Below, piece by piece: positions 951-32,508 of a stretch of DNA of 64,000 bases. The stretch's first letter is position 1. Every line of letters starts with the position of its first letter. Origin of the DNA: Catajapyx aquilonaris (Eukaryota); NCBI GenBank assembly GCA_000934665.2, contig KZ538039.1, positions 62,001-126,000 on the forward strand, written 5' to 3'. The position numbers were made by a program, and so were the translations under genes. A model generated the notes under the pieces. It saw nothing but the letters and a program-made list of their open reading frames with translations, was not told where the DNA came from and did not search any database.

Positions 951-1051
951 ATTGGTCTGCAAATAAACAAAGATTGTTGTTTTCATAGATTGTAATGCTA
1001 GTCATTGCTGGCTACCCCATTATGAGAATAAAGGTGCGTTTACATATGAGT

Positions 1052-1195
1052 GATTTGACGAGCGAAGTCATTGCCAAGCGAAGTAACCAATACTGTTTGG
1101 GGTGAAAGTAACAATCGATTTTCGCCTCAAACAATACTGGTTACTTGGGTTACTCAGCAATGTTACTGCCCGGCAATGACGTCGCTCATCAAATC
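1052..1195. mobile_element. MITE-like nested inverted repeat
   Basis: Outer arms GATTTGACGAGCGAAGTCATTGCC / GGCAATGACGTCGCTCATCAAATC; inner arms AAGTAACCAATACTGTTTGGGGTGAAA / TTTCGCCTCAAACAATACTGGTTACTT. Confidence 0.65.
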
Positions 1196-1950
1196 GCCGC
1201 TTAATGCTGTGATGTAATGAATGAATGAATATCTCGAAAAATTATTTTATATATCGCAATTTACATATCATCATCTCCTTGGTGCATGTGTCAAGGGGTG
1301 CCAAACAGATCCTGTGTGACTCCCAGTACATACTTCACATATTGACAAAGAGCCATAAGTTGTGACAACCATATAACCTGCAATATTATATAACACAAAT
1401 CAGCTGCCAATCACAACATGTAGTGGAACTCCTATAACACAACAATCCATGTCCAAGTTAAACCTGCCTGTAATAAGTGTTGAATGCAGTGGAAACGTGT
1501 CCAAAACAGATCTTTTGTTTGAACACTACACAAAATTCTCAATGTTTTTCCGTCACATACACAGCGACATCAACTCTTCATTTCTGCATGTCTACACTTT
1601 TCAGTGGAAGGTGAGAAGTGTCTTCTGGTCATTTTCTTCGTGGAATTTGAACCATTTCCAAATCAGCACAATGCCATGTTAATCCAGTGAGAAAGACACT
1701 TTTGATAGATAATGAAGCGCTTCCCATTTCTTGAATATTATGCTGGCATGCTTTTATATCAGAGAAAAAATGCTTATAATTTTTAAAAGGTTCGGATAAA
1801 AATTAATGGAATATTTCTGCTCTCCTTGTTCGTAACTAAGGTCATTGTATCATGTGGAGTTCAAAACACAGCCCTATCCACAATATTTAATAAGGTTCAG
1901 CTTATTTCCAGCAATAATGACAAAATATGGAAATATAAGAGTAACATTAT

Positions 1951-1956
1951 TTTATT
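1951..1956 (-). terminator. Candidate polyadenylation signal (AATAAA) of the EXD1-like transcript
   Basis: tttatt on + strand, ~85 nt downstream of the stop at 2041. Confidence 0.5.
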
Positions 1957-2040
1957 GCAATAACATAAAATATTTAAAATAATATTTATATTATCCTGTT
2001 TGATTAGCATCCAAACACAAGTACGTGCCTGGAGTGATTT

Positions 2041-4424
2041 CTATCTCTGTTTTTGGTCTACCGCTTCCAAAAATCCCTCTGGAAGTTTGAGTGGAAATTC
2101 CTGCAATTAAAAAAATTTGTCACATCTGTCATACACCAAACTGGCTACCACTTACTCTCGCTCTCATAGCTTCTACCTCCCACACATCCCTGAGAGTCGA
2201 CAGGTACAAGTCCACACCTCTGACGAAGCGGCTCATCATGGCTTCGTTCTGGGCCACACGCAGAGCCCTCAGGCTTCGGACTCTCTGGGAAGCCATGTGC
2301 AGCGTCTCCATTTTAAAGGGGCGCTGATCCCATATCTTATTTTCTGACATGCTTAATGCTGGTCCAATTTCTCTTGCTTCCCGCTTGGAAATGCCCAGGT
2401 ATGCCTCCAAGCAGACGGACAACTCCCGGATTTTGGGAGCGACTACACCTCTGTCACGCTGGATCAGCAAGTCCGCCACCTGGTGAATAATTGAAAATAA
2501 ATGTAGCTTTGATTGTTATAATTCCATTAATAGTGTTTTCCGAGATGTTCATTGAGAAGTAGGCTTATTACAGTAAAAATAAATAAATCTTCTTGTGATG
2601 TAAATATTGCAAGTTTACCTGCGTGTCAAAAATGTTGCAGAGCTTGATTCCATGTCTGTGATAAAGGGAATCAGAAGCCTGCCTGCAGTCATAAACCACT
2701 TTGATAATCGATGGTTCCTCCAGCAGCTTCCCTAGACCCCCTAAGTAGCAGTCCCCCTGAATCTCCTTCGTGTCAATCAGGATCACCTGGTCCCGAGTGG
2801 CAACAGACACCAGTGACGGAGACTCGTTCCTGCTCACGTAGGGGCCCTCGAACCTCAAGCCCACCACCTTCTCCTGCTTCACTTCCTCCATCGCCTGAGC
2901 AAAACTGTCCCAGTCAGCAATCACAGTGGTCTTTATTGGTCTCGGTGGGAGCTGGGAGTTGAGGGAAATAATATTCTTTTTGATGCCATCTTTAGTCTTC
3001 TCTTCAGGAGGATCCTGTTCTCTGGATATTATTTTAACTGTAATAAAAATGAGTTTCAAGATCAACATTTGTAAACCTATCATGTGTCATGGACTCATCA
3101 TTCCTGGTATGCTATGATCGACATATTTTAAATCCTTTTAGATAAAATAAGCTACATCTAGGCAAATCCTGTTATTCGCACAGGATTAATCACTTATTCT
3201 GATTTACTATTAATTATGCAACTAGCCATGTACTTCTTCCTAATCATGGAAGTGCCAAATGGTCTCTAGATTTACCCTAGTAAGGCCACTGGTCTGACAA
3301 TAAAATGTCTTGGTTGTATACAGTATATTTCCCTTTCATCACCTGGGTATTCATATGAAAGGTCCTTGTCGTCCCAAAGTGGCCTCCAACAGGGTGCTTC
3401 ATTCATGATTGTTAAGTCACTATAATGTACAACCAAATTCTACCATGCAGTAGGAAAAATTAGAAGTGGTTACACAAAGCCAGTAATAAAATTGTGATGT
3501 GAAGAGAAAATGTAGTTCACCGCCGAATGTTGAGACTGGAAGTCACTGAGGATCATGGTCATCAACCATGGATTTAAAGGTCTGATCCAGGATTGGTGAT
3601 CAGCATACGGTGTCAGCATAAGCACTGACCAGTATCTATGTGTAGCAATAAATCATCGAGGGATTCCGCAAGTCCCAATAAGTCATCCAACTTTCAGGCA
3701 CAGTCTATTTATTTTGTTGACAGAGAACTTTCTATCATACAGTTAGAAAAGGTGTAAATTTGGTCCTTTCCATAATGCTACCACCATAAAGAAAAACACC
3801 ACCAGAGTAAGTTCCAGGTATATTACTCAATACTTATTGCCCCAACCACCATCTTTAACAGGGCGTGCTTGCACAAAGTAACCAAGAAGAAGAAGAAATT
3901 CTGCAATGCTGGTACAGTAAACATAAGCCAGTACCACAATATGTTAACTCTGACAGCCTGCAAAACAATCACTGCCAATGAAGATCACTAGGTGGAATAA
4001 CCTATCATCAGATGAAATACTGTTCCAAGCCGTCTGGCCCATCCTTCATGTTATGAAATCTTCTACAGCCACATCATTACGCTCTGACACAGAATCACAG
4101 GAAGATTGGTTAGAAATAAGCACAATCAGAGAAACTTTTAATCTACATGTCGCAGCATGCACACATTCCTTCCCCGTATAACCCAATGCCTTCACACATA
4201 CCCGCAGACACGTCCTCCTTGTAGAACTTGAGGAATCCTTTCACCTCATCTCCATCAGGAATTCGTGTTATATCCTTCAGCTCCACCACATCCTTTGTTG
4301 GTGCCACCTTCTGGACCACACCCTGGAAGGTCTCACCCGACGTAGTCAGCTGGATAACATCGCCACACACAAGCTCTTCCATTTTGATTGCTCTTAATTT
4401 CAATTCAGCCATTCCTGCTTCCAT
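2041..4424 (-). CDS. EXD1: EXD1-like piRNA biogenesis protein (N-terminal Lsm-like domain + degenerate DEDDy 3'-5' exonuclease fold), ~341 aa, 4 exons: 4424-4202, 3037-2619, 2479-2156, 2100-2041
   Basis: All three introns are GT-AG with compatible phases, giving an open 1026-nt CDS. N-terminus GDVIQLTTSGETFQGVVQKV..VELKDI..FLKFYKEDV is Sm/Lsm-like; the exonuclease fold shows VVGLRFEG, LGKLLEEPSIIKVVYDCRQASDSLYHRHGIKLCNIFDTQVADLL, LSVCLEAYLG, WDQRP. Strong start context CCAAG-ATG-G. Confidence 0.85.
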
Positions 4425-4444
4425 CTTGGTCGGATCCCGTTCTG

Positions 4445-4902
4445 TTACTCCTGCTTCCCTACTTTATCGGCACCTATGCAGTACGCACGGTATATGAACA
4501 AGCCCAGCACAACGTGGACAACAACCAGAGTGGCACCGGCGGAATAAATGTTGCCCACCACCGAGTCCAAATCCAGCAGACCTGCGGGATTACAAACCAA
4601 CATGTATTTTCCTATGAAGGCAACAATTGGGCCTCATGTTTACCTTCGCAGATGTACCACTTGACCCCGAAGAAGGTGATGATTGGCGCGCAAATGACCA
4701 GAAGGCAGTAGCGAAGGGCAGTCAGGAACACCACGTTCTCAGACACCTCCTGCAAATACACACAACAGTCAGAACCAGGCTGAATTTCCCCCCCCCCCCC
4801 AAGTCCTGCCGGTCTTAAAAGAGCCTCGGTCTATAACAACAGACCGGCTGGAATACTCGCTTGCTTAGCCTTGAGCCTGGCGAACTCGCTCTGGAGATCC
4901 AT
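4445..4902 (-). CDS. VMA21: VMA21-like V-ATPase assembly factor, ~94 aa, exons 4902-4861 (tentative), 4749-4644, 4581-4445
   Basis: Exons 2+3 (canonical splice sites, phase-1 junction) translate EVSENVVFLTALRYCLLVICAPIITFFGVKWYICEG-LLDLDSVVGNIYSAGATLVVVHVVLGLFIYRAYCIGADKVGKQE*: two hydrophobic helices, the VMA21 signature VVVHVVL.LF.Y.A and a GKQE end like metazoan VMA21 (GKQD). Exon 1 (MDLQSEFARLKAKQ) needs a GC donor and is less certain. Absent from the ORF track because the exons are short. Confidence 0.85.
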
Positions 4903-5051
4903 ACGAGACACGCCTTGGAAGGTCAGCCAGACGGTCGGATTTAAACAAAGAGAATGGGCCAGGACCGGGTCCAGCAGAAATCCAACAACCAGATTCACGT
5001 GTAGAGACAACGACCCTGTATGCAAAACCATGGCACATTGGCGGACTCAAG

Positions 5052-5154
5052 CGGAAGCCATCTTTGAACTAGGCATACATTGGGTTTACACGTGCTAATC
5101 ACATCATAATTTTCGACCAATCGCAATAAGGTAAATTATAATTGCGCATGCGCA
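5052..5154 (-). promoter_or_regulatory. Housekeeping-type promoter upstream of VMA21/EXD1
   Basis: Perfect NRF1/ewg-type palindrome TGCGCATGCGCA (5143-5154), CCAAT (5117-5121), YY1-type AAGATGGC (5057-5064, minus) and ETS-like CGGAAG (5052-5057) clustered in ~100 bp just 5' of the VMA21 exons. Confidence 0.6.
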
Positions 5155-5299
5155 GTACTACGATTACTGGCACTAAAAGTTTCTTTTTTTATATATAAAA
5201 AAAAGCAACGCCACACAGCGGCACCTTTGGTCACTTACAGCCTGCACGTTGTTGACCGGTTAATTTCAAATATGAAAACACAATTTGGCAACCACAAAT

Positions 5300-5305
5300 T
5301 TTATT
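5300..5305 (-). terminator. Candidate polyadenylation signal (AATAAA) of flippase copy A
   Basis: tttatt on + strand, ~95 nt downstream of the stop at 5401. Confidence 0.5.
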
Positions 5306-5400
5306 CTATTTTGTTTCGCTTGCGGAAATATGGCAATACATTTTTTTTTTTTAATTCGGGGAATTTTCTGACAGATAATTTACATGATGAAGGGGAAGGT

Positions 5401-8400
5401 TTAATAAGATCCACCTATAAAGTGTCGTCTGGGATTAGTTGTGTCATAAGCTCGGATGAGTTCGTTTTGTGTCACTTGTCCACCCTCTTGCTGGGAGAAG
5501 GAGAAGCCACCTAATGGGCAAGTATATAGAAAGAATAATTAGCAGAAAGTTCTCCCAACCAAAAAAAATGTGAACAAGTGTAGTGGCAACATGTGATTAC
5601 ACAATTTTTTTTTAATGTAGGTATAACCCCGCATTCAAATTCATGTCAAGTGTCATGCTTCTTGAGTACTGTGTATTCGACTAGGCTATATGCTGTCTGC
5701 ATGTGGATGAGTGTGACAATCATAATTTTTCTGTACAGTATACTTACGCATTGGTGTCTGATCCCAAGAATCCCTCCGACTGTAGCGAGAAACCCTGAGA
5801 GAGAGAGAAAACACATGAGAATTCAGGTTAGGTCAGCCTTCAAAATTTCATGAACTGAAAACCATCACGAAAAGTGGCATATATGTAAAACATTTATGTT
5901 ACATTTCTGAAAGTCATTACGTGCCCCTAAAACTAGTGTCATTTCTACAAAATTCCTTACCTATTAGGTACTGTTCGTGCGGGGATAAATTGAACAAGTT
6001 CTATATTTTCTATCTCATTTTCCCTCCAAGCCTCTTGCACGTCCTTAAACAGGATATTCTTCACTCTGAAAGAAAAGTGTATTCATCAATTTTATTGAAA
6101 TCTTGATTAAACTTTCATAACAATAATAACAACAACAACAACAACAATGATCCCAATTATTATAAAGCTCAATATTTGTACATAATTATGTACAGTATAA
6201 TGTCACGTTTTGAATTGCAATAGCAACCATTGTCGACAAACAAAGAGTTCCGTTGTTATAGAAAAGACTCGGGGTGAGAATGTGGAATGGGAGGTAGTCC
6301 GCCATCTACACTTGGGACATAATGTCGCACATAATTGTTGTCCCAGTTGCTAGACAACTGTCAGAGTATTTAGACGCACAGTCAGTATAGTTGTCATGTA
6401 CAAGCCCAAACCAGTAGTTTGGTTCCAGCTCAGCACTAAATAAAACTGTTACGACCATGCCAAACCACCGTTGCGCCTTTGTGTGCAAGTTCAGGGCAGA
6501 AAAAGGCCCGTCAGCAGAACTCTTTGATCTCACCTTTCACATTTCCATGGAGATGCTACTGAATAGGAAAAAAAAAAAGAAAAGAAGAAGACAGTGTCAA
6601 CAATCAATCTTGGCCCAAGTAAAGACGGTGGATTCCTCAGCCGAGGAAAGGGGAAATGATAGGGAGTCAGTCGTTGCTCTAGATAACTTATAATACATAT
6701 TAAAGCAGAAATCTGTGACGACAACCAAAAATGAGGATTTACCTCCCCTGCCCACAGACCCTCACACCCCTGACGGGCCAAGTGAAAACCCTGTATAAAG
6801 GCTTTTTGTCATGTCGAGATATTCGTGTTTGAAATTTTTTGTTTCCATTATCGTATATGGAAGTGCATGACTTCAATTGGGCAAAACTTTGAAAGGGTTG
6901 CTCCTACAGTTACGGGCTTTGTACTGTACCAACAGACTGTGTGACTTGCAAAAAGGAGTGCAATATGGTGCATTTATCTCCATTTATGTGATTTTCAAAG
7001 ATACGGGGTTATCACTTGGCCAGTCAGATGTCCAAGGGGTGGATTCATCCTTTAATGTCGTAAGTCATATTTTCATCATAACCGGTTGTAAACCATAGTT
7101 AATTAATTATTGGTAACTATAGTTACGACCGGCTATGACGAAAATATGACTTACGACATTATTTTGCTGAATCCACCCCCAAATAAATATTTCAAACTTT
7201 TACATAACCAGTCCCGATTGGTTTGGCGAGAATTTTGTAGGGCCTATCACAGGCCGGGTCAGCCCATAAAATGTTCCTCGACTGGTGAGATTTATTATGC
7301 CGCCCCAGGTAACAGCAGTAATAAAATATGTCAAACTAATACAGTATGGTACTAATATTTGTTGCAACACAAGAAGTTTATTATTTTGTCAGTGGAGAGA
7401 GTGTAGTTAAGCACTACTCTTTAGTCAACCATATAATACTGTAATATAGTGAATTATTCATCTGTCTGAACCATTGGTATGGCTGCCAGATGGCAAAAAA
7501 TGTGCATCGGAGGTATGGATGCCCATCTTTGGAGTTGTCTTCTATTGGTCTTTGTTATGCTGTGCTTTATTATTGCTCTACAGATTTAGCTGTTCACTGT
7601 TATACACATTCTCCTAACTACTGAGAGACGTATGTTTGTTCTCAATTCTCAGCAATTATTTTGCTACTTTTTGATAATATTTTTCAAAAAATGATCAAAA
7701 TGTACCCTTTAAAATCACCATAAAATAGATGTTTGAGGTCCAACCACTTACTAGTATGTTGGATTGAATATAATTGCTAATTAATTTTATAAATTCATAA
7801 AAATACAAAATGGGAAGTAGTCTGGCTTATTAAACATCAAGTATGCTACATAATATTATGAAAGCATCTTTGCAGACAGCAAATAAACAATCGTTTCCAC
7901 TCACATTGTAATGATTATCGTGGTAATGCATTTACAGGAGGAGTCCTACCATGAAAAACCTTTTGCAGTCATTTCTTTAGGTTGCAATACTCACGTTTTA
8001 TAGGTAAGATCAATCAAGAGGGCTGTGACAGGAGTTAGAACCAGTCCTGCCCAAAAGACTGGCGTGCTATACATCATGTGGTCAATACCACATATCTCCG
8101 AAGGCTGGCCACTGTAAGAATTCACCTTTGAGAACAAGACACCAAAAGAGGATAAGCAGCATATTACCTTACGATTGAAAGGAAAATGAACCATACAAGT
8201 ACTGAGCCCCAGATGGACAGATGCGTTGGCCACGTCCATGATTTTGTTTCCAGTCCCGCCTTCAGGCCAACAGCAACCACAACATACTGACCAGAACAAC
8301 AGAACATATGACTGTATGAGTAAAACCTCGCCAAGAGTATTTGGTGTGCAGGGGTTTTTTCGCAACTTAATGTCGATCGCATTATGTGACCTTCCTTACA

Positions 8401-11400
8401 TGGCAACTTCCAGAGTAACATTCTGACAAGAACTCTGAGGATAATATTAAAGTATTTTTCATAGTCAAAGAACTCACTGTGTAGATTGCGGTTCCAAGGA
8501 GGAGGTAACTGCCACCCTTTCCATGTTCCCACACTGTATCACTTTCCAAGAAGGACATAGGCAGCCAGAAGAGAATGGCTGAATGTAAGACGGCATTGGC
8601 AACCCAAACCACCAGTTTCCTGTAGTTAAAAAGCTGCCCACGTTGGCAGTGTCGGTACAAGGAAGGGTGGTTGAGCTTGATCGCAGCGCTGCAAGGATGG
8701 TCAAACAGACCCATGGCCATAGGCGCTGCAGCAGTGAAGATCAGGTTGTACAAGCTCAAGGTCCACTTGTTGAAGATAATTTGAGCAGACCAGCCATTGT
8801 AAATGGCAAACCAAAATTGCATCAGCCCTATTGTGACATTCTTGTAGATGCTATAGAGAATTATTTTGCTGATGCGACTGTAATTCCATGCCCCATGGAT
8901 GAACAGAAGGCGAGAAAGGAAGCGGAACTGTATTGGTAGAAACAGTGTCACATTTTAAGAAGGACAAAAGCATTTTAAATGACATTCACGAGTCATACTT
9001 TCTACTTACTTGAGCAATAGAGTAGTCAGAAGAGCAAGCAGCCTGCCAGCCCTCCTCACCGGCAATCCCAACGCCAACATTGGCCTTCTGTATCATTGGT
9101 ACATCATTGGCCCCATCTCCTATAGCTAGAGTTATTGCCCCTGTATTTTCAGACACTAGCTCGACCAGGTCAGCCTTTTGCACGGGGGACAACCTGCAGC
9201 AAATCACTGCCCTGCAGCTTACACAGAGCTTCAGGAAATTCTGTCGCATAGGCTTCCTCAGGGCATATTTGAGGGTCTCGCCGTCTATTATAAGAGCAGC
9301 ATCGTTGTGCTTGCCCAGATTATCTCCGAAGAGATACATGTATTTCCTGATGACATCCTCGGTTGCGTTGTGATCCTTTTCATTGAAGAACAGAAGTGCC
9401 ATTTCTTGCTTCAACAATCTGCATGAATGTCCTATGTTAATGGCTGTTTCCTGCTTGTCCCCAGTCAACATCCATACATGGATGTCTGCTCTCAGCAGGT
9501 CTTGAATAGTTTCAGGGACTTTGTCCTGGAGTTTGTCTTCTATGGCTGTGGCCCCAAGAAGTACCAAATTTTTCTCTATGTGGTCTGCCACATCATCCGC
9601 TTTTGTTGTACGAGAATGGATGTATGTGGTTGACTCATAATAAAGAGATTCCCAGTCCTGAGCAAAGGCAAACAAAGAGGACATATTGATGTAGGTGCTT
9701 ACATCTCTCTAAAAGTCATTCACCATAACAACTTACCGTGTAATAATTGTCAGAAATCTCTGCCATGGCAAAACAAAGTGTTCGAAGCCCTTCAGCAGCA
9801 AAATCTTCAAGATCGTCGAGGACAGTGTCTTCATGCTGCTGTTCCTCTCGAAGCCTCTCATAGATCACTGTATCTGCTCCCTTGCAATACAGCTTAATTC
9901 TGCCCTCCGGTGTGCGAACCACTACTGACATTCGCTTTCGAGCACTGGTGAACTCCAACACGTTAAGGATCTCATAACTTTCCTGCTTGCCCAGAGCATT
10001 GATCACCACAGTCTCGGGAGTGCGAGTATGAAAGACGTACCCAAACTTTGCAGCGCCTTGGAGTATGGCCTTCTCATCTTGAAAGAAGAAACTTATTATT
10101 ATTAGAGTAACCAACTTTGCATTCATTTACATTTACCTTTACTACATTTATTCAGTACTGACCTGGAGAAGAAGCATGATAAATGATCTCTTCATCTCGC
10201 CTTTCCGGAATGACAGTGTGGCAGATGGCCATCGAAGTGAGAAATTCTTTTATCAGGGGAGCAGATGAATGATTTCTCCTTAAATTCTGTAATCCAGATA
10301 CAACACCTGTTATAATTATACAGATGAACATGGATAACTTATAGGTTGTGATCGTTATTCTCAACATCACCTGTATAATATCTGTCTGTTCTGGGTGGTG
10401 GTTAGTGGCGATGTACTTAATCCCACCCACTGTAGCCCTTTTGAATTCCATAATATTTCTTGTCAATGTTCCAGTCTTATCCGAAAATATGTACTTAACC
10501 TTGAAATAAATTAATAGTGTGCCAGTTCCAATGAGTTCTTAATGCATTGTCAAAGAGTTGCTCTTCAAAAAACCAATTATCATAAAACAATGATGTCATG
10601 AAACAATACTGACCTGCCCTAACTCTTCATTCAAATTTGAAGTCCTTGCCACAGCAGGTGTATCAGAATTCTGATCATAAAGGTCAATGTCCATGCCGAT
10701 AAATAGTGCCTGTAACAAGTGTCAAATATGCAATTTATTTGTTTAATTAATTACAAGCAATTTTCATAACTATCCAGTCTCTTTCACCTGAATGAATCTG
10801 ACACTTTCTAGTGTAACTTGAAGTGAGATTGGAACGAGATTGTGGTACAGAATGATGAACATCAGGAGAGAGTATGCCAAACTCGTTTCAGCTGTCCCCA
10901 GGTGATGCAAACATGTGAGTAGATATCTCAAAGTGACTTTTCAGCACTAGTGCGTAAGATACGTGGCTCATTCACTTACCATCCAGATGAATATACCAAA
11001 TCATTCCTCCGTGGTTCTTACTCCAGATGTTGCTGCATATGATGCTGATGAGGCACAATGAGAAGAGGAGGGCCACTAAGAGGATTAACTGCCTATTTAG
11101 AACCTTGTCCACGGTTGATCTCTTGAGATGAGGATCAGTTGAGTTCTGCATAAGTTTGGAGTCAAAACCAGTGTATACCACAACAGCCACCACCCATCTA
11201 GTGTTCCTAAGTTTGGCGCCTCTCAGGATAATCTGGTCTGTACTCAGTCGCACATGCCTGTAATGATGGTACAGTAAAGTAATGCACTTTAATGGCATTT
11301 AATAATTACATATGACTTACTTTTTACCAAACTCCTGAAGATCACCTCTGAATCCATAAAGGTTCATGTTTGGTGGTTCACACGTGAGGATGCCATGAAA

Positions 11401-12958: not shown

Positions 12959-15900
12959 TCATATGTCGTCATTATCTGAATACACTCCAATTGCAGCCCG
13001 ACTCCATATTCTTCCTGGAAATTCACTTGACCTTCTGGAAAAAAATAAAAGTAAATTATGAATTGTTGTTGTTGTTGTTGTTAGAGCCCAAAAGTTATTT
13101 CAACTTACTTCCTCTTTATTTCCTTCATAAAGATTTTGGCATCTGCTTCCTCAATTATCTCAGTTTCTCTAACAATCTCTGTAAAAGACCTGAAGATGGT
13201 ACTCCTGACACTGCAAGAGATATTTATGCATGTAAGTATGGGTGTGTTCTTCCAGATTTGTTGGGATATGAAGATGTTGGGATATGAATAATATGAATGT
13301 AGCTCACAGTACTATTACAACATCTGGCAACATAGTGGTCAGAGGCATGATAATCAGTCCTAACCAAAACAGAGGTGTAGTGAACACCATTGAATCCATC
13401 CCGCACATAACAGCACCAAATGGAAGGTAGGGCCATGCGTGACTGTAAAAAAAATTAATGCATTCAAATAAAACTACTGCTTTGGTCAAAGCACCGTCAC
13501 ACTGACCTGTACGCAGCCAAGGTGATAAGCCACATACCTAGTGACCCCCAGAGAGACAGGTGGGTCCACTTGTTCCATGTTTGAGTCTCAAGTCCTACTT
13601 TCATGCTCACTGTCGCAACAACATACTGCAATAATAATATCAGCTGATAATAATATTGTTCTCTAGCGTCTAATACAGGCAGCAGTTTTTCTTCTCGCAT
13701 CATGTTAATTAGGTGTGTCTTTTCAAAAATGCAAGTGCTACATTAGGGATTGAAAGTATAGATTCAGCAGACGTTCCCATTTGTTTGTTAATGTTGGCAA
13801 CAATATTATTAATAGGATATGTTGAACCTGTGGCCTCAGATCTACAGGCAGTGGTGCAACCTGGCCTTAGTCACTATTACCAAGATCTTCAAATTCATGC
13901 CATTCATAATATTGCACAAGTTTATGCTCCTTATTGCACATACCGTGTAAACCATATTTCCAAGGACTAGATAACTACTGCTCTTGCCATTTTCCCAGGC
14001 AACATCTTGCTCCATTGACATCATGGGCAGCCAAAAAAGGAACACTGAGTGGACAATGGCAGTCACAATCCATCCCCAGAACACTCTCGTGTTGAATAGT
14101 TCACCATTCTGAGAGGGTTTGTACAGGGCAGGGCATCTAACCATGGTCTCTGCTGAACATGTGCGATCAAAGAAGCCCATAGCAAGCGGCTGAGCATTGG
14201 TGAAGATCATATTGTAGGTGGCTATTGTCCATCTGTCAAACAATATTTGACCTGACCACCCGCCGTAGATAGCATACCACATCTCCATCATGTAAAGAGC
14301 TATGTTCTTGTAGAAGTAGTACATGATCACTTTGCTTATCCTGCCATAGTTCCACACACCATGGACCAACAGGAGACGGGACAGGAAGCGAAACTGAGCA
14401 ATGGAGTAATCAGAAGAGCAGGCTGCCTGAAGTCCCTCGAGACCAGATATGCCAACCCCAACGTTTGCTTTTTGTATCATGGCCACATCATTGGCACCAT
14501 CTCCGATGGCCAATGTGATTCCATGCGTCTGTTGCGTAACCAGTTCTACAACCTCAGCCTTCTGCATTGGTGATACCCGACAGCAGACAACTGCCTCGCA
14601 AACCGAGCACAATTGGAAGAAGTCCTGCCTTACACATTTACTCAAGGCATGCTTCAGTGTGTTGCCATCGATGATAACAGCTGCATGATTGGTCTTATTT
14701 GAAATGTCACCTAGTTCCTCAATGTGTCTGTTGATTTCCTCATGTGTGGACTCTGCTGTATTCTTGTTGAGGATCAGCAATGACATTTTCTGAGTTAGCA
14801 GGCGACAGGAGTATCCGATGTTGATGGCAGTTTCCTGCTTGTCACCTGTCAGCACCCACACTGATATGCCAGCTTTCATCAGGGATGCAATGGTCTCAGG
14901 GACTTCATCCTGGAGCTTATCCTCAACAGCTGTTGCGCCCAGCAGCTGAAGGTTCGTTTCAATCAACTCTGCGGCCTCTTCCAACTTTTTCTCGCGCTGT
15001 TCCAAAGATGTGCTTGCCGCATGATATTTTACCTTCCACTCCTGGTAAATTATAGAACACTTGTTATACAACACCAAACACTAAACTGATGGCTATTAAT
15101 GCGGTAGTTACACAATTGAAGTGTACACATAGTGTGAGTTTCGAAGCCAACACTCACATTGTAGAACTCTGGGGTGATGTCAGACACTGCTAAGCACAAT
15201 GTCCTGAGCCCTTCTGAGGAAAAATCTTCAAGGTGCTTTACGGTGATGTTCTCATATGGTTGGTTGCCACCAAGCCTCTCCAGTATCACAGAATCCGCCC
15301 CCTTGCAGTAAAGCTTGAGCTTCCCATCAGGAGTACGTACCACCACTGACATCCTCTTGCGGGTGCTGGTGAACTCGAGCATATTCAGTATTTCGTACTT
15401 CCTTTCTGTTCCAAGAGCATCTATGAAAACACACTCAGGAGTGCGCCTTGTGAAAACGTACCCACATCCTCTGGCACCTAGCACTAATGCCCTCTCATCT
15501 GTGGCCAGAAGAGAGCAAAGAAATGAGCTATTTTCTGCACATAAGATCATATCTAAGTTTACAACCAGGAGATGCTGCATGGTAGATAAGCTCATCATCT
15601 TCAACTTCTGGAATGACTGTGTGACATACGGCCAGCAAAGTCAGAAATTCATCTATAATTTTGCCAGTCGATTGATTGCTCCTCATATTCTGCAATAAAA
15701 AATTCCAATTAACTGGGGATATAGTGGATAAGTTGCATATCTCCAACCTGTATAAGTTCTGATGACTGCGGCTGAATAACAGCTGCAAGGAAGTACTTTA
15801 TGCCACACACTGAGGCGCCCTTGTACTCCATCTTATTTTGTGTCAGGGTTCCAGTCTTATCTGAAAACACGTACTTTACCTGAAAGGTAAAACAGAGACA

Positions 15901-17825
15901 CATGGTGCAGTGCATCACCATGTGTACTTATTGTATCAATTTATATGATAAACTGCACAAACCTGCCCCAATTCTTCATTTAAATTTGAAGTCCTGGCCT
16001 TAGCAGGAGTGTCTGATTCACAGCAGTACATCTGCATATCGGAGTTGATAAGCTTTGCCTATAATAATAACAACGGTGTCATCATAAATGCCACTGCCTA
16101 AGGTTTCTCTATGCACGAAAGAAAATCTCACCTGAACAAATCTGATAACTTCAAGAGCGACTTGGAGAGAGATGGGAATGAGGTTGTGGTATAAGATCAG
16201 GAATGTCAGGAAGTTGAATCCAAAATTGAAATTAGCCATAGCTATACCAAAAAAAGAAGGAAACAGTTAAAGTGCATCACACGTTTGTTTCATTTTGTTT
16301 GCAGCCTGGATAAATTCATAGCAAAACAACTTTGATTTCCCTCCTTCATCACAGTATACATGCACTTATGAAAGTATCTTACATTCCAGCCCTAAGTACC
16401 AGGAACCTGCCTGGTTAGCTTTGGTCCACACCTCAGTGAAAATTGTACTTGTCATACTCATGATGAAAAGGACTACTAGGAGGAGGATGACTTGGTTGTT
16501 GGCATGCTTGTCTAGTGTTGACCTTTTCAGTGGTGCACGAGTCGAATTCTTCATGAGTTTGGTCTCACTCCCCGTGTATATGACAAGGCCAAAGATCCAA
16601 CTTGTGTTTCTCAATTTTGAGCCACGCAACAAAATCTGATCTGGCCCAAGCGCCAGTGTTCTGCAAATCAAACGGCATATTACAACTTTCCTCATTTGCT
16701 TACATTGGACGGCAACAGGTGAACATTTATTTGCACTACTGACAATGGAAGGTGAGGAAAGTCAGATTTTTCCAAACATTTTAAATTGCATCAACAGCCT
16801 TCTTAAACATTGGAAGCTACTAACTCGTATTTGTAGTATTATACATTGTTAATTGTGCCTTACTCATTTCTATCCTCTGTGAGGTTCCCAACAAATTCGT
16901 ATAGATGCCTGTTTGGTGGTTCACACACTAAGTATCCCTTGAATGTTGGCAAGTCTTCAACATGTTGCAGCCTGGCAGTCTTTGGCAGGGCCTGACGAAT
17001 CTTCAGGTTGGTCTCTCCGTCCAGGTTGGCAGTTTCTTTGTAGCAAATGGAATGAGGCTCACTTAAAAATAGATTTGTTAAAAAATCAGTTATTGCAAAA
17101 AATCAGGTAATAATTATAAGCCAAACCACACCAAATTCAGTATGGAAATAACTTACCTGGAAGAAAGCAAGACAAGATCTGCAGGGAAGAAACTATCCCG
17201 GCTTACTCTGACAATGTCTCCGACTGCCACATCAATCCACTTGACCCATTTCCAGGAACCTTCGCTATGAACTTCCACTTTTTTGTTGTTGACCTTTTGA
17301 TCTGCCTTGTGCCGTGACTGAAAGGTATAATAAAGTAACAGTACAATTTTAATTGTTTACGAGAGGCAAGTATTATTGGAAACACTTACATAGTCTTCTA
17401 AAATCTCTTTGATAGCAGACACAGTTAAAATGAATGTAAGTGGCACCACAGTGGCATAATGTCCAGTTGGAGACACATCTGGTATTTGCTGTGAGTAAGA
17501 CATCCTTGATGAATTAAAAAGTCCACAAGAACTCAAAAATATGCAGTAAAAACACTTATCTCACCTGGAAGGCGGCAATCATGAGGAAAAAGCAGTTGGA
17601 ATACTTGCGAAACTGCTCAAATAAAAAACTGGGCAAAAATGTCAGAAAAGTATACTTCGCAGTGGACATGTGATTGGTGCAAAACCTTTTCTGGTGTCCT
17701 TGGTTGATTAAAATGACGCGATGACCAGGATGTGATTTTTTTCGGTCTTTGGCACTCAACGATGAATCTAGCCGGCTTCGAGTTGAGTGAAAAGACTCGA
17801 CTACATCAAGGCCCTCATCTTCCAT
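12959..17825 (-). CDS. ATP8A-type P4-ATPase phospholipid flippase, tandem paralogue 'copy B' (15 coding exons)
   Basis: From ATG 17825 (MEDEGLDVV..) all exons splice in frame with [58 protein letters not shown]. The last two exons (13210-13109, 13034-12959) give a novel C-terminus ..[25 protein letters not shown]. Confidence 0.88.
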
Positions 17826-18255
17826 TGTCTTCTGCGTAGCTCAACTCTTGTTCCAGTTCTTGTACGTCGGACTGCAGGAAAATGTATGTCCTGTCGTGTT
17901 TTTCTGTGCTCTCAGTCTAAGAGTTACCCAAATCAGTTACCCAAAATGTAGAGGGACCTGGAAAAAGTCAAGTTGTATCAACTGAAATTAAGGAGGAAAT
18001 TTCAGATTGTGTATTTTAAATATTTGGAGGTTTTCCATAATATTGTGCTCATGCAATTGGCCTTTAAAGGGTTATTTAACATACATCTGCACCTAATGAA
18101 ACAAAAATCTTATTTGGTACTAACTGATGAAAAAACCCTCCCTGCCTCGTGCTTCTTCATTACACAAAAAAGTGACTTATATGGAAGCCTAGTTTCTGCA
18201 GATTTGTACCTTAACGACAACTATGAATAAATACAGTATGTTTCCCATTCAGGAC

Positions 18256-24700: not shown

Positions 24701-27700
24701 ACTTAGCTGTTCCTTTCATCAAGCATAACTCCATTTTCATCCTTGCTATATCTCAAAAATGAAAAATTCATTATAAAATCTCATTTTAAATGTTCTCTGC
24801 GATGTTTGTGTCTGGTAAACAATTTGCAGCTCATTCAAAAATTGTAATCTGAGCTACACTAATTCTCAGGACAATGAGAATTGCACACAAAGTTGTAAGC
24901 AATGAATAATGACCTTACGTAATTGATTATTATCCACAGTCGCCATATGAGGCCACTGGACAGTAAGGATCCAAATCAAATTCCTGTTTCCCTAACATGT
25001 GGGGCCTTGGCTTACATTCTTCTTGCATAACAAATTAACAAATTAATTACCTTAAGTACAATTAAAGGCATCCAGCAAAGAAGTGTACCATATGAGACAG
25101 ATACAACATGTGTACATAAAAATATTTTCTTATCCACAAATAATCAAGTACAATGTCAGTTACTGTTTAAAATGTACGAAATTCAATGACAGGATATTAA
25201 GTCATGAACTTTGTAAGATGTAAGATCCCAGGTTAAACCATCAATAAAGCATTAATTTCAATAATAAATTTCAGACACAGCCTTTGTTGGATGCACTTCT
25301 GTTCAGTATCCATCTAAGAGTATCATGGATTAAAAACTCAATGACATGTGCATGACAGTCACATACCTCTGCTTGGTGTCCCTTGTCAGAACTTTGGCTG
25401 GGTCAGTGTTCCTTATCTCACTCTCTCTCACAGCTTCTGTGAGTGTCTTAAATATGGTACTCCTTGCACTGTTGGAATAATTGGCAACCATTAGTATGAC
25501 TCAACTATTCAACCAGGGAAAGAGGGCAATACGTACACTACAACCACGACGTCCAGCATCAGGGTCGTAAATGGTATAAGAACCAGTCCTAACCAGAAGA
25601 CTGGTGAACTAAACACCATCCGGTCCATTCCAAGCATCACAGCACCAATTGGAAGAAATGGCCATACATTGCTGTGGAAGAAATATTATTATTTACAACT
25701 ACTGCAATACAAACAGAAGGCAGCTTGTGAATGTAACTCACCTATAAATGAGGAGAAATATGAACCACGCTACTATGGACCCCCAGATCGCCAGGTGGGT
25801 CATCCAGGTCCATGCATTTGTTTCCAGGCCAGCCTTCAGGCTCACCGTCGCCACCACATACTACAGCAAATTAGAGCAAAGTTACAATTTTGATGCATGT
25901 ATCTTTGAATCAGTTTCATGTTCAAGAATTCTTTTGCAAGGTGGAAGTGACTGCTTGACACTTATTACAACTCCCAATAAGATGGGTTGAGATTAACCAC
26001 ACTATGTGACAGTCAAGTGTCACATTTAAGGCTAAAGGATCACATTACGTGACACCCTGCCTTTTCTTGTGCTGTCGCACGAAGGAGCAAATCAGCTGGT
26101 TTTACAGCACTTCTTCACATGATTCATATGACTTCCAAAAGTTATGAAAAGTCACTTGTTTTCAGATAATTAATATAAAGTTATAGTACCAGATATCAAC
26201 TCTTAAAATCATCACCCACAATTTTAGCATGTGCTCACCGTGTAAACCATATTCCCAAGGACGAGGTAACCCCCTTCTCTGGCATTGCTCCAGGCCACGT
26301 CATGCTCCATAGCGAGCATGGGCAGCCAGAAGAGCAGCACGGAATGGATGAGGGAGTTTATAATCCACACCCAGAACACTTTAACATTGAAGAGCTCAGC
26401 ATTCTGGGAGGGCTTGTACAGGGCAGGGTACTTGAGCATGGTCTCTGCACTGCAAGTCCGGTCAAACAGACCCATGGCTAGGGGCGGTGCAGCAGTGAAG
26501 AACACGTTGTAGAAACCAATGGTCCACCTCTCAAAGAGAATTTGGCCAGACCAGCCAGAATAGATGGCAAACCAGAGCTCCATCACATACAAAGTAATGT
26601 TTTTGTAGAAGCTGTACAGGATTAGCTTGCACATGCGGCTGTAGTTCCAGGCGCCATGAACAAACAGCAGGCGGGATAGATACCGAAACTGCAGGAGAAG
26701 AAGGTGTGTAAGAAGCTATGCCATTTCAATCCTTAGCTCAGAGTGACATGGTATTTAATATGGCAGAATAATAGCATTAGTAGAGCTAATGCCAACCACA
26801 TGATTAAATGACAACAGTACTGTATGGCCTTCTCAATTTACAAATAATGTTTCTGATCATAAACTGAACCACTGCATCCCAAATTTAATATCGCCACCTT
26901 TGGTCAGCATGAATAAACATATAAGCAGGCTACTGCTGTCACACCAGTCAATTACAGAAAATGTTTGTGCAATGCAGCAACTACATGTATACATGTTTCA
27001 ATGGACTTAAAATGGGATTTCAGAAGAAACAGTGCACCTGGAATTTCTCTATTCACATTTTGCAAGAATGATTAGAATCTTCGAGGCCTCTATGGGCAAA
27101 AATTCCCGGATAATATTCGGCGCTTCTAAATACTAGGTTCAGTCAATCTTGCCAGGATTTTGGATGCAATGCTTCACTTACAGTTTTGTAGTTACATGCA
27201 CACAACAGCAATTTTTAATGTTGTTACACACTCATGATATTATGACTCTTTATAACTATGAAAACAAAACCTACCTGGGCAATTGAGTAATCAGATGCGC
27301 ATGATGCCTGCAAGCCCTCGACCCCAGATATTCCAACCCCAACATGAGCTTTTTGTATCATGGCTACATCATTGGCCCCATCTCCAATAGCCAATGTAAT
27401 AGACTTGGTCTGGTGCGTCACCAACTCCACAACTTCTGCCTTTTGCATGGGTGACACCCGGCAGCAGATGACTGCTTTGCAACTAATACACAAATCCAAA
27501 AAGTCCCTCCTCATATCACAGCTCAGGGCATACTTAAGAGTTTTCCCATCAATGATGAGGGCAGCTTCATTCTCCTTGCCCAACTGGTCACCAAAGTCAT
27601 GTGTGTGTCTCCCAATGGTCTCTCTGGTGGAATCCAAACTGTCCTCATTGAGGACTAGGAGAGGCATTCCTTGACTCAGCAGACGACATGAGTAACCAAT

Positions 27701-30700
27701 GTTGATTGCGGTTTCCTGCTTGTCACCAGTCAGTACCCAAACATGTATGTCAGCCTTCATGAGAGCAGCGATTGTCTCAGGAACTTCATCCTGAAGTTTG
27801 TCTTCAATTGCTGTAGCTCCCAAGAGAACTAGATTGGTTTCTATCAGGTTGGCTGCATCCTCCAGCTTGCGTTCACGGAATTGGATGGCTGTGCTTGCCT
27901 TATAATACGTGTTCTTCCATTCCTACACGAGAAGAAAGCTCTCAATCACTGGTGAGCCAGAAGTAACACAGACCTTTCTAGGTAATTTCAAAGTTATTCA
28001 GATAAATAACTGCAAACTTTAAACATACAACAATCAGTTTACCTCATAAAAGTCTGGAGAGATGTCTGCCACCGCACAACAGAGAGTCCTAAGTCCCTCT
28101 GTAGCAAAGTCCTCCAAATGCCTGAGGGTAATATCCCTATGCTGCTGGCTATCCCCTAACCTCTCATAGATCACAGTGTCAGCTCCTTTGCAATACAGCT
28201 TTATCTTGCCCTGAGGGGTACGCACCACTACTGACATCCTCTTTCGGGTGCTGGTGAACTCAAGTACATTCAGTATCTCGTACTTCTCCTGTTTCCCCAG
28301 TGCATCTATCACCACGGACTCCGGGGTACGTGTCAAAAAGACATATCCATACCTTGCAGCACCATGTACAAGAGCCCTCTCATCTTGAATGACAGAAAGG
28401 GAAGAAAATATGTCAGTCAACCATAAAGACAAAATAACTGAAAATTCCTTTCCTCTAGACGCCTCCAGTCTAGAATCCAAAAAAGCATGTCTCACTCACC
28501 TGGAGAGGCAGCATGGTAAGTGATTTCCCCGTCTAAACCTCCCTCACCCGTCTCTGGGATAACAGTGTGGCAAACAGACATCAGGGTGAGAAACTCTCTG
28601 AGGAGTGGAGCAGTAGGATGGTTCCCTTTCAAGTTCTAAAATATAAAATTGGTATTTATAAACTGGTCTTACATATTTCCAAATCAGATTTGGTTCTTGT
28701 TACCTTTACAAGATCTAATGCATGTGGCTGGAGGTCTGTGAGTGTATATTTAATTCCTCCGACAGTGGAGCTTTTAAACTCCATTATGTTTCGAGTTAAT
28801 GTTCCTGTTTTGTCCGAAAACACATACTTAATCTGAAACAAGGAATTCTTATTGCAGTCTACAACATTTGCACTGTACTGTACCTCAATTATTATACAAT
28901 AGAGTGACTGACCTGCCCTAATTCCTCATTTAAATTTGATGTCCTAGCCATGGCAGGTGTATCTGACTCTTCATGATACATTTCTATATCCATGTTAATA
29001 AATATAGCCTGCCAAGAACACAAATTGTAATCAGTGGCTGCTTCAATATTTAATAACTCTGCACCTTACCTGCACAAACCTAACTACTTCAAGGGTAACT
29101 TGAAGTGAAATGGGAATGAGGTTGTTATAGAGGATGATGAATGTCAGGAGGTTGTAGCCAAAATTTGCACTGGCCAGTTCTGAAATTGGAAAAAAAAAAA
29201 TGGTGATCAATTCCTACAAGGTGATATTCATAATTGTAGCAAGACTTTAATGTCCTTGACTTTTTCCCTTAAAATGATTAAAGTATATTTAGTAAGTTAA
29301 AATTGCTTTTGGAATGGTCTGTGTGGGAGAAAAAGTACAACAGGTTGGAGTGATTGTAGAAAAACACTGTTTAAACTGCAGCTAGAATTGGTACCACACT
29401 TATCGATACCCAGTCATTATGAAACCTGGCCCATAATTTTCCAATTGGAGTTGGGTACTCCCTGGGTGTACATTTCATTGGTTACTAAATTTCTGGCTAG
29501 TTGAAGCAAGGCTCCTTAACATTTTCATAATTCATTGTGCAATATGCCATGAGACTTAAATTTGTTTGGGTGTGGCTGCTCCTCAAAATTTGAGAAATGG
29601 TGTCTACTTCTTTCACATCAAATTTTCGTTGTATGGTGAGTTGGTTTCTTTCGAGAATCTGAGTTTTAGCAAGAATATGCAGATTTATTATGTATTTCTT
29701 GGCATTCATTGTTATGAGCCTAAAGTCCAAAGCAGATTGCACTAAAAGGCTCATTGCTCATTCAGACTAAAAATATGCTCATTAAAATGCTGCGCCCACA
29801 ATGTTTTCTCCATAAGCATACATATGCATCTTCATCTGCATATGTATTCACATTAATGAATATTAAGCCAGGTATGCCAAGAATTTCAGAATGAACAACA
29901 AGCTAAACTGAAAAACCTGAATGGTTTCTTAGGGAAGGAAGCAATGGAACAAATGGAAAATACTGCAAGGCAGGGACAATCACAAAGTGGTCTTACCATC
30001 CAAGCCCAAGTACCAGTCAACTGAAATGTGTGACTTGGTCCAAAACTCATTGCACAAAGCGCTGATCAGACACAACACAATTAGAATGAAGAAAAGGAGG
30101 AGGATCTGAGTGTTGGTAAGCTTGTCCACAGTTGACCGCTTCAGTGGGGCAGAGGTAGAATTTTTCATCAGTTTGGTTTCATGGCCTGTGTAGATCACAA
30201 CACCAAAGATCCAGCTGGTGTTCCTCAATTTGGATCCACGCAACAAAATTTGGTCTGGACCCAGCGGAAGTGCACTAGAAAAGACACCAACAATATAAGG
30301 CTGCAGTCCAAGGAAATTTAAATTAAAGGGAAACTTACTGTTTTCCAGTCTCTCTGAGGTTTCCAGCAAACTCGTACAAGTGTCTGTTTGGTGGCTCACA
30401 CTCTATGGTGCCACTGAATTGACTCAAATCTTTGGTTTCCATCAGTTTGGCAGTTCTAGGTAAGCCTTGACGGATCTTCAAGTTGGTCTCCCCATCCAGA
30501 TTGGCTGTTTCCTTGTAACATATTGACTGTGGCTCACTGAAAACCATAAAAATGCAATAAGTCTCAGGGCTTGATGTGACATTCGAGTCTACATACCTTG
30601 ACGACAGGAAGACTAGGTCGGCTGGGAAGAAGTTGTCATTATGGACCTTGACTATATCACCCACCACCACCTTCATCCATTTCACCCACTGCCAGTGACC

Positions 30701-31224
30701 ATCTCTCAAAACTTCTATCTCCCTGTGATTTATCTCACCATCTGCTCTATGTCTTTTCTGGAAATGTATAAATCCATGAGTCCAACACGGCAATACACCA
30801 ATAAAAATTCCACGTATGACCCCCAAAAAATTCATTCTTACAATGTCTTCCACTGTCTCCTTGAGGGCTGACACAGAGAGAATAAATATAAGAGGCACCA
30901 GGGTAGTGTAGCGCCCAGTTGGAGAAACATCAGGTATTTGCTGGAAATCAAGTGCCATGTCAGAAAATTCATAGTTACAACACCATAAAGCCCTAGTTTT
31001 AGAGTTACTCACCTGCAGAAGGGCAATGAAGAGGAAGAAGCAATTGGAGTACCTACGAAACTGCTCGAATAAAAAACAGGGAATGAACGAGATGAGGTTG
31101 TACTTTGCAGTGGATATTCGGTTGGTGCAATACTTCTGCGGCTGGGGGTGATTGATGAAGATGACACGATGCTCCATGACATCCGGCATTTCTGTGACAC
31201 CGGATGTGTGGTCATCATCTTCTT
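21746..31224 (-). CDS. ATP8A: ATP8A1/ATP8A2-family P4-ATPase (PS flippase), conserved 'copy C'; shared 17-exon body, N-terminus supplied by upstream first exons
   Basis: Exons 31224-31013 ... 25468-25367, 23207-23119, 21843-21746 splice in frame. Canonical motifs: [64 protein letters not shown], and the ATP8A tail [32 protein letters not shown]. The first body exon opens with a phase-1 acceptor (ttgcag|AA GAA GAT). Confidence 0.93.
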
Positions 31225-32508
31225 CTGCAAGGAAATATTTAAAATCAGCATGTTTCAAATACAACATCTTTGGCAACACTAGATTTAAGTGGTGACATAT
31301 AAGGTGGTGACATATATTTACAGTTCTCTCTGCACAGTGTTTTTAATAAGGACCCAGCAGAGATTATGTGTGAATTTAGTATTCTGTCCAGCTGTTGCCA
31401 TAAAAATGTGCTTCCTCACTTGAGTGATTGTCATGTCACATAAACCAGATTTGATACTCCTGCCTGCATGCCTGACCCTATCTCTTTAGCACGAAAAAAA
31501 AAAGTGGCACACATAATTTCGCGCATAACCACTGTCAGTGGACTGCCAGTGATAGTTTCCCAACTTTTATTCATCCACTGTGAGACTTGAATTACTGTAA
31601 GCCTAGTACAGTAAAACTTGTCCACACAACAAACACTGGGTACTGCTGAAACTTGTCCATTATGGAACTTTTGTTTGGTTTTCAGCACAGGAATTTCAAT
31701 GCACTTCCGTCACACATAATGAAAACCTGTTCACTCTACATATATTTTTCAGGACATACACTGTAGACATCCTGTAATATTTGAACACTGTGCTGCAGTA
31801 TTGATAACTAGTAATGGAGTAACATGAAGTGGCATACAGGCTACTACAGTGAAACCACTCCACTTTAACAATTGCTTGAATAATACACTGAGAATCATTA
31901 CTCTGACATTTTGGATGCTTATTGCCTTATCACAACTGGACCACTTTCCAATGTTTATTATAGCAAGTTGATCACTTTTCAAATTTTAATAGGCCACAAG
32001 TGTCCTGCTTCACATATTCACTGTCCAGCAGCTCTTGCACTGATGTACAGTAGCCTACACTTATTTTACATTTATGATACACATTTTCGAGTTTCCCTCA
32101 AAATGAATACGAGGCCACAAGCCCTTAATAATTAAAATTGTCAGTTAAATTGTCAATATTGTTGGCAGTCGAGTGTTTCCCTTTGTGACGTCAGTAGTAT
32201 TCTAAGGCTGCATACATTATACATGTTGTAAACTCCCCAAAGCAGACGTGAAACTTTCTGCATTCAAAAGTCAGCTCAATAAACTATTCATATCCTGTCC
32301 CTTTTTGGGAGCGGATGTTGAGGAAGGAACCGAACCAGACAGGCCATTATACAGCTCGCCTGTCCCCAAAATGGGGTCCTCCTGTCCACACATTTGGCAC
32401 AGCTTCCTGACCCGATAAGCAATCGAATCCCCTCCCCAACGAGCGATGTTACTGCGTCGTTATCGGGGCGCACAGGTGCTACTACCATCCCATATGGTCC
32501 CAACTTAC

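Follow-up and report, generated by a model that had tools for sequence, protein, structure and literature searches.

The closest described counterparts of the locus reported here come from insects, green algae and tunicates. In Drosophila, the open reading frames (ORFs) sloth1 and sloth2 (orthologues SMIM4 and C12orf73) are separated by a spacer of 5 nucleotides (nt), their start codons stand in non-optimal and then optimal contexts, and, in the available portion of that report, reporter output from ORF 2 is inverse to how strong the ORF-1 start is (PMC9681215). Bicistronic loci of the green algae Chlamydomonas and Auxenochlorella combine a weak Kozak-like context at ORF 1 with start codons that are under-represented ahead of ORF 2, as far as the accessible text of the study describes them (PMC11291117). 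Operons of Ciona intestinalis follow another plan; according to the available part of that source, in 19 of the 19 with mapped ends the cistrons directly adjoin, with no DNA between the upstream poly(A) site and the downstream acceptor, 16 of 18 lack an AATAAA in the 40 nt before the poly(A) site, and complementary DNAs that still span both cistrons unresolved occur (PMC1488885). Here we describe a locus of Catajapyx aquilonaris, contained in a 64-kilobase (kb) stretch of contig KZ538039.1 (assembly GCA_000934665.2, positions 62,001 to 126,000), which we call the window and whose numbering we use throughout. At this locus, a gene for the vacuolar ATPase (V-ATPase) assembly factor VMA21 ends 20 nt before the start codon of EXD1, a gene of the PIWI-interacting RNA (piRNA) pathway, within one exon. 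We tentatively propose that EXD1 is the second ORF of a bicistronic VMA21-EXD1 mRNA and that ribosomes may reach it by leaky scanning.

The locus resembles sloth1/sloth2 in its small transmembrane ORF 1, its short spacer (20 nt as against 5 nt), its weak-then-strong order of start contexts and the single transcript that we propose. It differs in that the Drosophila products, in the available portion of the report, are paralogues of one complex whose translation was shown with reporters (PMC9681215), whereas here the products are unrelated, ORF 2 is a multi-exon frame of 341 amino acids (aa), and translation is only predicted. With the green-algal loci, in which ORF 1 encodes, for example, TOM22 or OST4, it shares a weak start context at ORF 1, a shortage of start codons ahead of ORF 2, a small membrane ORF 1 and a short inter-ORF region; those loci belong to another kingdom, yield exclusively polycistronic transcripts and were tested in vivo, so far as the accessible text goes (PMC11291117), whereas at our locus an alternative terminal exon alters the ORF-2 product. 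The Ciona operons, as the available part of the source presents them, are alike in having same-strand genes with nearly no intervening DNA, an AG at the boundary, an upstream cistron without AATAAA, and dicistronic RNA (PMC1488885). In contrast to them, the candidate acceptors here are purine-rich and no spliced leader was seen in the RNA contigs.

We regard VMA21-EXD1 as likely to be a new example of a rare but known arrangement in which two genes share one messenger. It is set apart from the known leaky-scanning bicistrons by the unrelated functions of its products, by its long multi-exon ORF 2 and by a terminal exon that changes ORF 2. To our knowledge, few nuclear bicistronic genes of animals are known outside Drosophila, and these usually encode related small proteins. 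A literature search, with most subscription journals and supplements outside its reach, found no description of a VMA21-EXD1 pairing, nor of a bicistronic or operon context for either of the two genes; the papers listed on bicistronic subjects dealt with LINE-1 retrotransposons and, in a review, with variants of untranslated regions in Mendelian disease.

Results

RNA Continuity Across the VMA21-EXD1 Junction

One public run from one study (run X1) contains the locus, and its contigs were mapped to positions 1000-7000 of the window. The record does not state the kind of run; we read it as an RNA assembly because the contigs skip introns, and contig depth in intron interiors (3211-3612) is 0. 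Twelve joints were listed, comprising seven with GT..AG and one with GC..AG on the minus strand, and the remaining four lie in a repeat at 1027-1201. A single contig of 655 nt (depth 13.1) is composed of 5029-4860 (170 nt), 4748-4642 (107 nt) and 4579-4202 (378 nt), with one mismatch and no gaps. It begins with a leader, continues through the whole VMA21 ORF in spliced form and across the spacer, and takes in the entire first exon of EXD1. Further contigs join EXD1 exon 1 to exon 2, and every exon boundary of VMA21 and EXD1 is a joint in contigs of this run. These contigs report continuity and splicing; RNA starts, ends and levels cannot be read from them. The parts of the locus, in the direction of transcription, are as follows.

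4950-5400, minus strand: promoter-like region upstream of VMA21, with a peak in the observed/expected ratio (o/e) of CpG, GCGCATGCGC, CACGTG and CCAAT
4903-5029, minus strand: VMA21 5' leader as far as the 655-nt contig reaches (start at 5029); 127 nt, no ATG
4861-4902, minus strand: VMA21 exon 1, coding part; 14 codons, start context cgtATGg, RNA joint 4860/4748
4750-4860, minus strand: VMA21 intron 1; 111 nt, GC-AG, RNA joint
4644-4749, minus strand: VMA21 exon 2; first hydrophobic helix, PF09446 positions 2-31, RNA joints
4445-4581, minus strand: VMA21 exon 3, coding part including the TAA at 4447-4445; PF09446 at 33.3 bits, second hydrophobic stretch
4425-4444, minus strand: spacer; no unusual RNA structure nearby
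4202-4424, minus strand: EXD1 exon 1, coding part; 74 codons and 1 nt, start context aagATGg, unbroken RNA contig over 4579-4202
3692-4083, minus strand: alternative terminal exon; joint 4202/4083 (GT..AG), AATAAA at 3713, a contig ending at 3692
2619-3037, minus strand: EXD1 exon 2, exonuclease-like domain; joint 4202/3037, PF01612, PDB 5fis/5fiq
2156-2479, minus strand: EXD1 exon 3; joints 2617/2477 and 2155/2099, open frame
1996-2100, minus strand: EXD1 exon 4 and start of the 3' untranslated region (UTR); stop codon at 2043-2041, a contig reaching 1996

The initial annotation of this stretch, made from the letters alone, had placed the VMA21 stop codon (TAA, 4447-4445) 20 nt before the EXD1 ATG (4424) in the same exon, and had described the two ORFs as lying in different frames, with the EXD1 frame closed by a TAA 14 codons upstream. 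All of these coordinates hold on the minus strand, where that TAA lies at 4466-4464. The spacer between them (4444-4425) reads CAGAACGGGATCCGACCAAG. The annotation had further pointed to 4581-4425 as the interval in which an acceptor might splice EXD1 free of VMA21; among the joints of the run none enters this interval, and the contig runs straight through it with the VMA21 ORF intact. Eight AGs lie in the interval, and pyrimidines make up 0.15-0.55 of the 20 nt ahead of each. For the two located after the VMA21 stop (4443-4442 and 4426-4425) the fractions are 0.15 and 0.40, compared to 0.55-0.85 at the eight used acceptors examined (of which two, in the upstream gene, were placed 1-2 nt off in this measurement), in agreement with the earlier judgement that the AGs near the spacer are implausible acceptors.

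Signals for a separate 3' end of VMA21 were also sought around the junction. No canonical poly(A) hexamer occurs from the VMA21 stop to 4202; the one variant found, a GATAAA, is at 4468 and precedes the stop, and the first AATAAA on any spliced path is at 3713. Given the lack of a canonical signal before 4202, VMA21 mRNAs most likely include the EXD1 start. Folding of the 146 nt around the spacer, compared with shuffled sequences, revealed neither RNA structure nor an internal ribosome entry site (IRES), with 81 of 200 shuffles folding at least as well (z -0.21). No fused VMA21-EXD1 annotation was found when the 94-aa VMA21 was compared by phmmer with 151 EXD1-like proteins (no match at E < 1).

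Identity of VMA21

The first gene has three coding exons that run from the ATG at 4902-4900 to the TAA, with 285 nt encoding 94 aa. The initial annotation had called the product VMA21-like and had suggested a comparison with the family profile. In a scan that covered the exon ORFs separately rather than the spliced protein, the stop-to-stop ORF of exon 3 matched Pfam PF09446 at 33.3 bits (cut-off 29.5; profile positions 17-64 of 64) and that of exon 2 at 18.6 bits (positions 2-31), i.e., the two ORFs match successive halves of the family model in order. Two hydrophobic stretches were found at residues 16-48 and 57-87 (Kyte-Doolittle, 19-residue windows of at least 1.6), and the 94 aa include no internal Met. 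The joint of intron 1 was listed as CC..CG with one ambiguous letter, which equals GC..AG on the minus strand (donor GCGAGT). A word search returned no close relatives of the exon-3 ORF, and phmmer with its 44-aa peptide, a very short query, gave no match among PDB sequences at E up to 10. The Pfam profile above its cut-off, the two predicted hydrophobic helices and the length of 94 aa identify this gene as VMA21, with a putative role in assembly of the V-ATPase V0 sector.

Identity of EXD1

The second gene is spliced from four coding exons (4424-4202, 3037-2619, 2479-2156 and 2100-2041) into an ORF of 341 aa. Exon 2 matches PF01612 at 42.9 bits (cut-off 23.6; E = 5.8e-11). Among solved structures its best match is EXD1 of Bombyx mori (5fis/5fiq; E = 1.3e-15, query residues 60-167), followed by Egalitarian (1.7e-09) and Rrp6/EXOSC10 (1.5e-05). 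The first protein-atlas cluster, with a score of 0.93, bears the name 'piRNA biogenesis protein EXD1-like'. An exhaustive phmmer search recovered 742 relatives at E of 0.001 or below, and the 150 listed show 29-47% identity. Ten relatives were looked up and six had names; for two of these, one a sea cucumber protein and the other from a shark, the annotation reads 'piRNA biogenesis protein EXD1'. The matches come from widely separated organisms, namely an insect, molluscs, an echinoderm, a shark and an ichthyosporean-like protist. In a metagenome scan with exon 2, none of the 264 pattern matches was a relative, and a locus scan with a JGI-derived EXD1 homologue gave one weak, unrelated-looking locus (39% over 41 residues).

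Exon 1, which carries the start codon, matched no Pfam family and no PDB entry; a word search, confined to longer proteins, gave no close relatives, and a pairwise BLASTP comparison with one homologue was not significant. We built a hidden Markov model (HMM) from the N-terminal 90-100 residues of nine EXD1 homologues, with the window protein excluded. It matches exon-1 residues 21-72 with a score of 34 bits (E = 1.2e-12 against one target sequence) and an hhalign probability of 95.8%, a test with mild circularity in that the nine homologues were picked after viewing their alignment with the window protein. An N-terminal, predicted Lsm-like domain appears to precede the exonuclease-like domain. 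The first Met of the homologues aligns near the third Met (residue 15) of the window protein, so the EXD1 ORF is N-terminally complete and requires no upstream coding exon. Translation may begin at Met 1, 5 or 15, each of which lies downstream of the VMA21 stop.

EXD1 is a partner of TDRD12/PIWI in piRNA biogenesis, and loss of its catalytic acidic residues, leaving an inactive nuclease, is one of its features. At the one motif position that we examined, the first Asp of exonuclease motif I, the window protein has Phe (LRFEG), and the aligned homologues are non-acidic there too. The gene is like annotated animal EXD1 in the N-terminal domain common to the nine homologues and apparently in this missing acidic residue (FEG). 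It differs in its low identity to the 150 listed relatives, given above, and in its four coding exons, with a start inside the last coding exon of another gene. Both names proposed by the initial annotation are upheld by the Pfam and PDB matches and the N-terminal profile, and both genes are real gene models rather than chance matches.

Alternative Splicing and the Promoter-Like Region

The donor of EXD1 exon 1 (4202) branches in the RNA contigs, with one joint leading to 3037, the start of EXD1 exon 2, and the other to 4083, the start of the alternative terminal exon. In the second splice form the EXD1 frame ends at 86 residues, which leaves an N-terminal-domain-only ORF. It is plausible that this short form is the ordinary VMA21 mRNA.

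CpG o/e is 0.96-1.31 over 4950-5400, compared with 0.17-0.73 over 3600-4650. The same region contains a GCGCATGCGC palindrome (5153-5144) that is single-copy in the window, two of the nine CACGTG sites of the window (5094 and 5001), and CCAAT/ATTGG boxes; from their names and usual meanings, we take GCGCATGCGC, CACGTG and CCAAT to be promoter motifs. A scan for CpG and these motifs showed no second CpG-rich, motif-bearing cluster before EXD1. The earlier statement that the only promoter-like cluster lies upstream of VMA21 is thereby confirmed by both CpG o/e and motifs.

Start Codons and Their Contexts

In the spliced RNA from 5029 to the EXD1 ATG, the sole ATG is that of VMA21; the leader of 127 nt is free of ATGs, as are the 302 nt that separate the two start codons. 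Dinucleotide shuffles of these 302 nt (10,000 trials) contain a mean of 4.5 ATGs, and only 0.26% contain none. The VMA21 start context is cgtATGg, with C at -3, and that of EXD1 is aagATGg, with A at -3 and G at +4, as judged by the general eukaryotic consensus, which may not be that of this host.

Under the model that we favour, VMA21 and EXD1 would be transcribed as a single unit under the control of the promoter-like region upstream of VMA21, and the mature mRNA would present, in order, the 94-codon VMA21 ORF, the 20-nt spacer and the EXD1 ORF. The majority of scanning ribosomes would initiate at the VMA21 AUG, and some would bypass it because of the poor context at -3. The latter would meet no further AUG for 302 nt and may then initiate at the EXD1 AUG. 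Splicing at the EXD1 exon-1 donor would set the identity of ORF 2, as either the 341-aa EXD1 or the 86-aa N-terminal-domain protein, the latter on a short mRNA with its end at 3692. Single molecules with both ORFs, and translation of ORF 2 from them by scanning, are the predicted elements of this model.

Discussion

The reading that EXD1 is reached by leaky scanning on a shared mRNA is favoured with reserve, and several points weigh against it. A short-read contig across two genes does not prove that both lie on one molecule, and the locus is seen in only one run of one study. The lack of ATGs between the two starts is suggestive, not strong: permutation of codon order (20,000 trials) gives a mean of 1.95 ATGs with none in 8.7% of trials, and permutation of synonymous codons (20,000 trials) a mean of 0.78 with none in 38%, such that the lack mainly amounts to the absence of internal Met from VMA21 rather than avoidance of out-of-frame ATGs. 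The VMA21 ATG also has G at +4, which makes its context only moderately weak. Finally, an ATG in a strong context (GCCATGG) stands at 5031, in frame with VMA21 and 43 codons upstream, 2 bases past the end of the contig; if transcription began slightly above 5029, the leader would gain this start codon.

A somewhat unlikely alternative is that the two genes have overlapping but separate mRNAs. EXD1 exon 1 and the 4083-3692 exon would then form a long spliced 3' UTR of VMA21, EXD1 would be transcribed from internal starts (in VMA21 intron 1 or 2 or exon 2 or 3) that leave out the VMA21 AUG, and the contig would merge two populations. Such an internal start site would be invisible in contigs, and the short form, with its end at a canonical AATAAA (3713), would function as a normal VMA21 mRNA. 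CpG o/e is still moderately high (0.68-0.73) over 4200-4650, and the unmethylated zone may extend into VMA21. In other animals EXD1 is reported to be germline-restricted and VMA21 ubiquitous, a difference that would favour separate control. Opposed to this are the position of the CpG peak and of the GCGCATGCGC, CACGTG and CCAAT group upstream of VMA21, with no separate promoter-like cluster, and the coincidence that it would make of the ATG-free 302 nt and the weak-then-strong contexts. Contig depths are also similar for VMA21 (13.1) and parts of EXD1 (8-19.4), although such depths cannot rank genes. We consider it improbable that the locus is instead a spliced-leader operon of the Ciona type, in which a precursor would be cut at the AG at 4426-4425 or 4443-4442, EXD1 would gain a leader, and VMA21 would acquire its poly(A) tail at this same site, with a 3' UTR of at most 20 nt; the spanning contig would then be unprocessed precursor. 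An AG immediately before the EXD1 ATG, the missing canonical poly(A) signal and the GATAAA 40 nt upstream all suit this explanation, and the Ciona operons look alike in the available part of their description (PMC1488885). However, the pyrimidine fractions before the two candidate AGs fall below those of all eight used acceptors, and the contig passes through 4441 and 4424 with no joint or listed loose end at either, though contigs can drop short leaders. The short splice form, moreover, supplies VMA21 with a conventional 3' end. The host's affinities, as read from P4-ATPase genes elsewhere in the window, point the same way: the named entries among the best 120 matches (all but seven; 45-67% identity) are arthropods, molluscs and one fungus, with no named tunicate, cnidarian, nematode or flatworm among them. 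CpG depletion in gene bodies likewise speaks against nematodes, flatworms, rotifers and Oikopleura.

The initial annotation had inferred that EXD1 is a second cistron, translated after termination-reinitiation or by leaky scanning. This is supported in part, by the shared exon, the RNA continuity and the fit of the sequence to leaky scanning; termination-reinitiation has gained no specific support. That a bicistronic mRNA yields EXD1 by reinitiation or by internal ribosome entry seems highly improbable to us. In its favour, a mere 20 nt separate the stop from the start, and the same RNA continuity applies. Against reinitiation, it is generally inefficient after an ORF as long as 94 codons, and against both routes, the junction holds no structured element by folding; a classical IRES would also need more than 20 nt. 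Both precedents in which the point was tested, according to the available portions of the reports, gave more output from ORF 2 once the start of ORF 1 had been made weaker, opposite to the prediction of reinitiation (PMC11291117, PMC9681215). A stricter form of leaky scanning, in which the mRNA is obligately bicistronic, VMA21 acts as a 94-codon, AUG-free leader ORF that meters EXD1, and the terminal exon switches ORF 2, strikes us as distinctly doubtful.

Should leaky scanning operate here, one promoter and one stream of scanning ribosomes would set the ratio of three proteins, and EXD1 expression in Catajapyx aquilonaris could not be read from promoter logic alone. The locus would then offer a natural test case for leaky scanning across a first ORF of approximately 300 nt, to which the switchable ORF 2 adds value. 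If the arrangement also proved to be conserved in the lineage, it would tie germline transposon defence to a housekeeping assembly factor in a way that has not been reported. Annotation is affected too: the 94-aa VMA21 would escape standard pipelines or be called the 5' UTR of EXD1.

Other Features of the Window

Upstream of VMA21 lies a small minus-strand gene of at least three exons (5355-6066; RNA joints 5960/5793 and 5746/5508), whose end is a genomic A-run approximately 325 nt upstream of the VMA21 5' end. At position 6365, the match to the genome breaks off at one and the same base in four RNA contigs, whose loose ends have a median length of 16 nt; a spliced leader was considered for this site and rejected, as the genome there does not end in AG, and it is probably a repeat boundary. 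The repeat at 1027-1201 reaches an RNA contig depth of 422, has joints in inverted orientation as well as several loose ends, and matched neither Rfam nor a tRNA.

Over the whole window there were no Rfam matches and no tRNAs. A Pfam scan of 130 other ORFs of the window returned only one further piece of a P4-ATPase, and the 102 ORFs of at least 75 aa between 32 and 64 kb had no Pfam match. Three tandem P4-ATPase paralogues (ATP8A-like flippases) occupy the minus strand at 7990-10540, 13840-17840 and 26220-31340. Their exons are unusually long, one encoding 412 aa at 13842-15080, and their best HMMER matches are arthropod and mollusc ATP8A1 (60-67% identity); in the protein-atlas cluster of a P4-ATPase exon, Chordata is the commonest phylum.

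CpG depletion in the window is mosaic, with o/e of 0.12-0.5 over the genes at 8-32 kb versus 0.6-1.1 over 32-64 kb. Mosaic depletion of this kind fits gene-body methylation, which is absent in several trans-splicing lineages, and the pattern here looks like such methylation.

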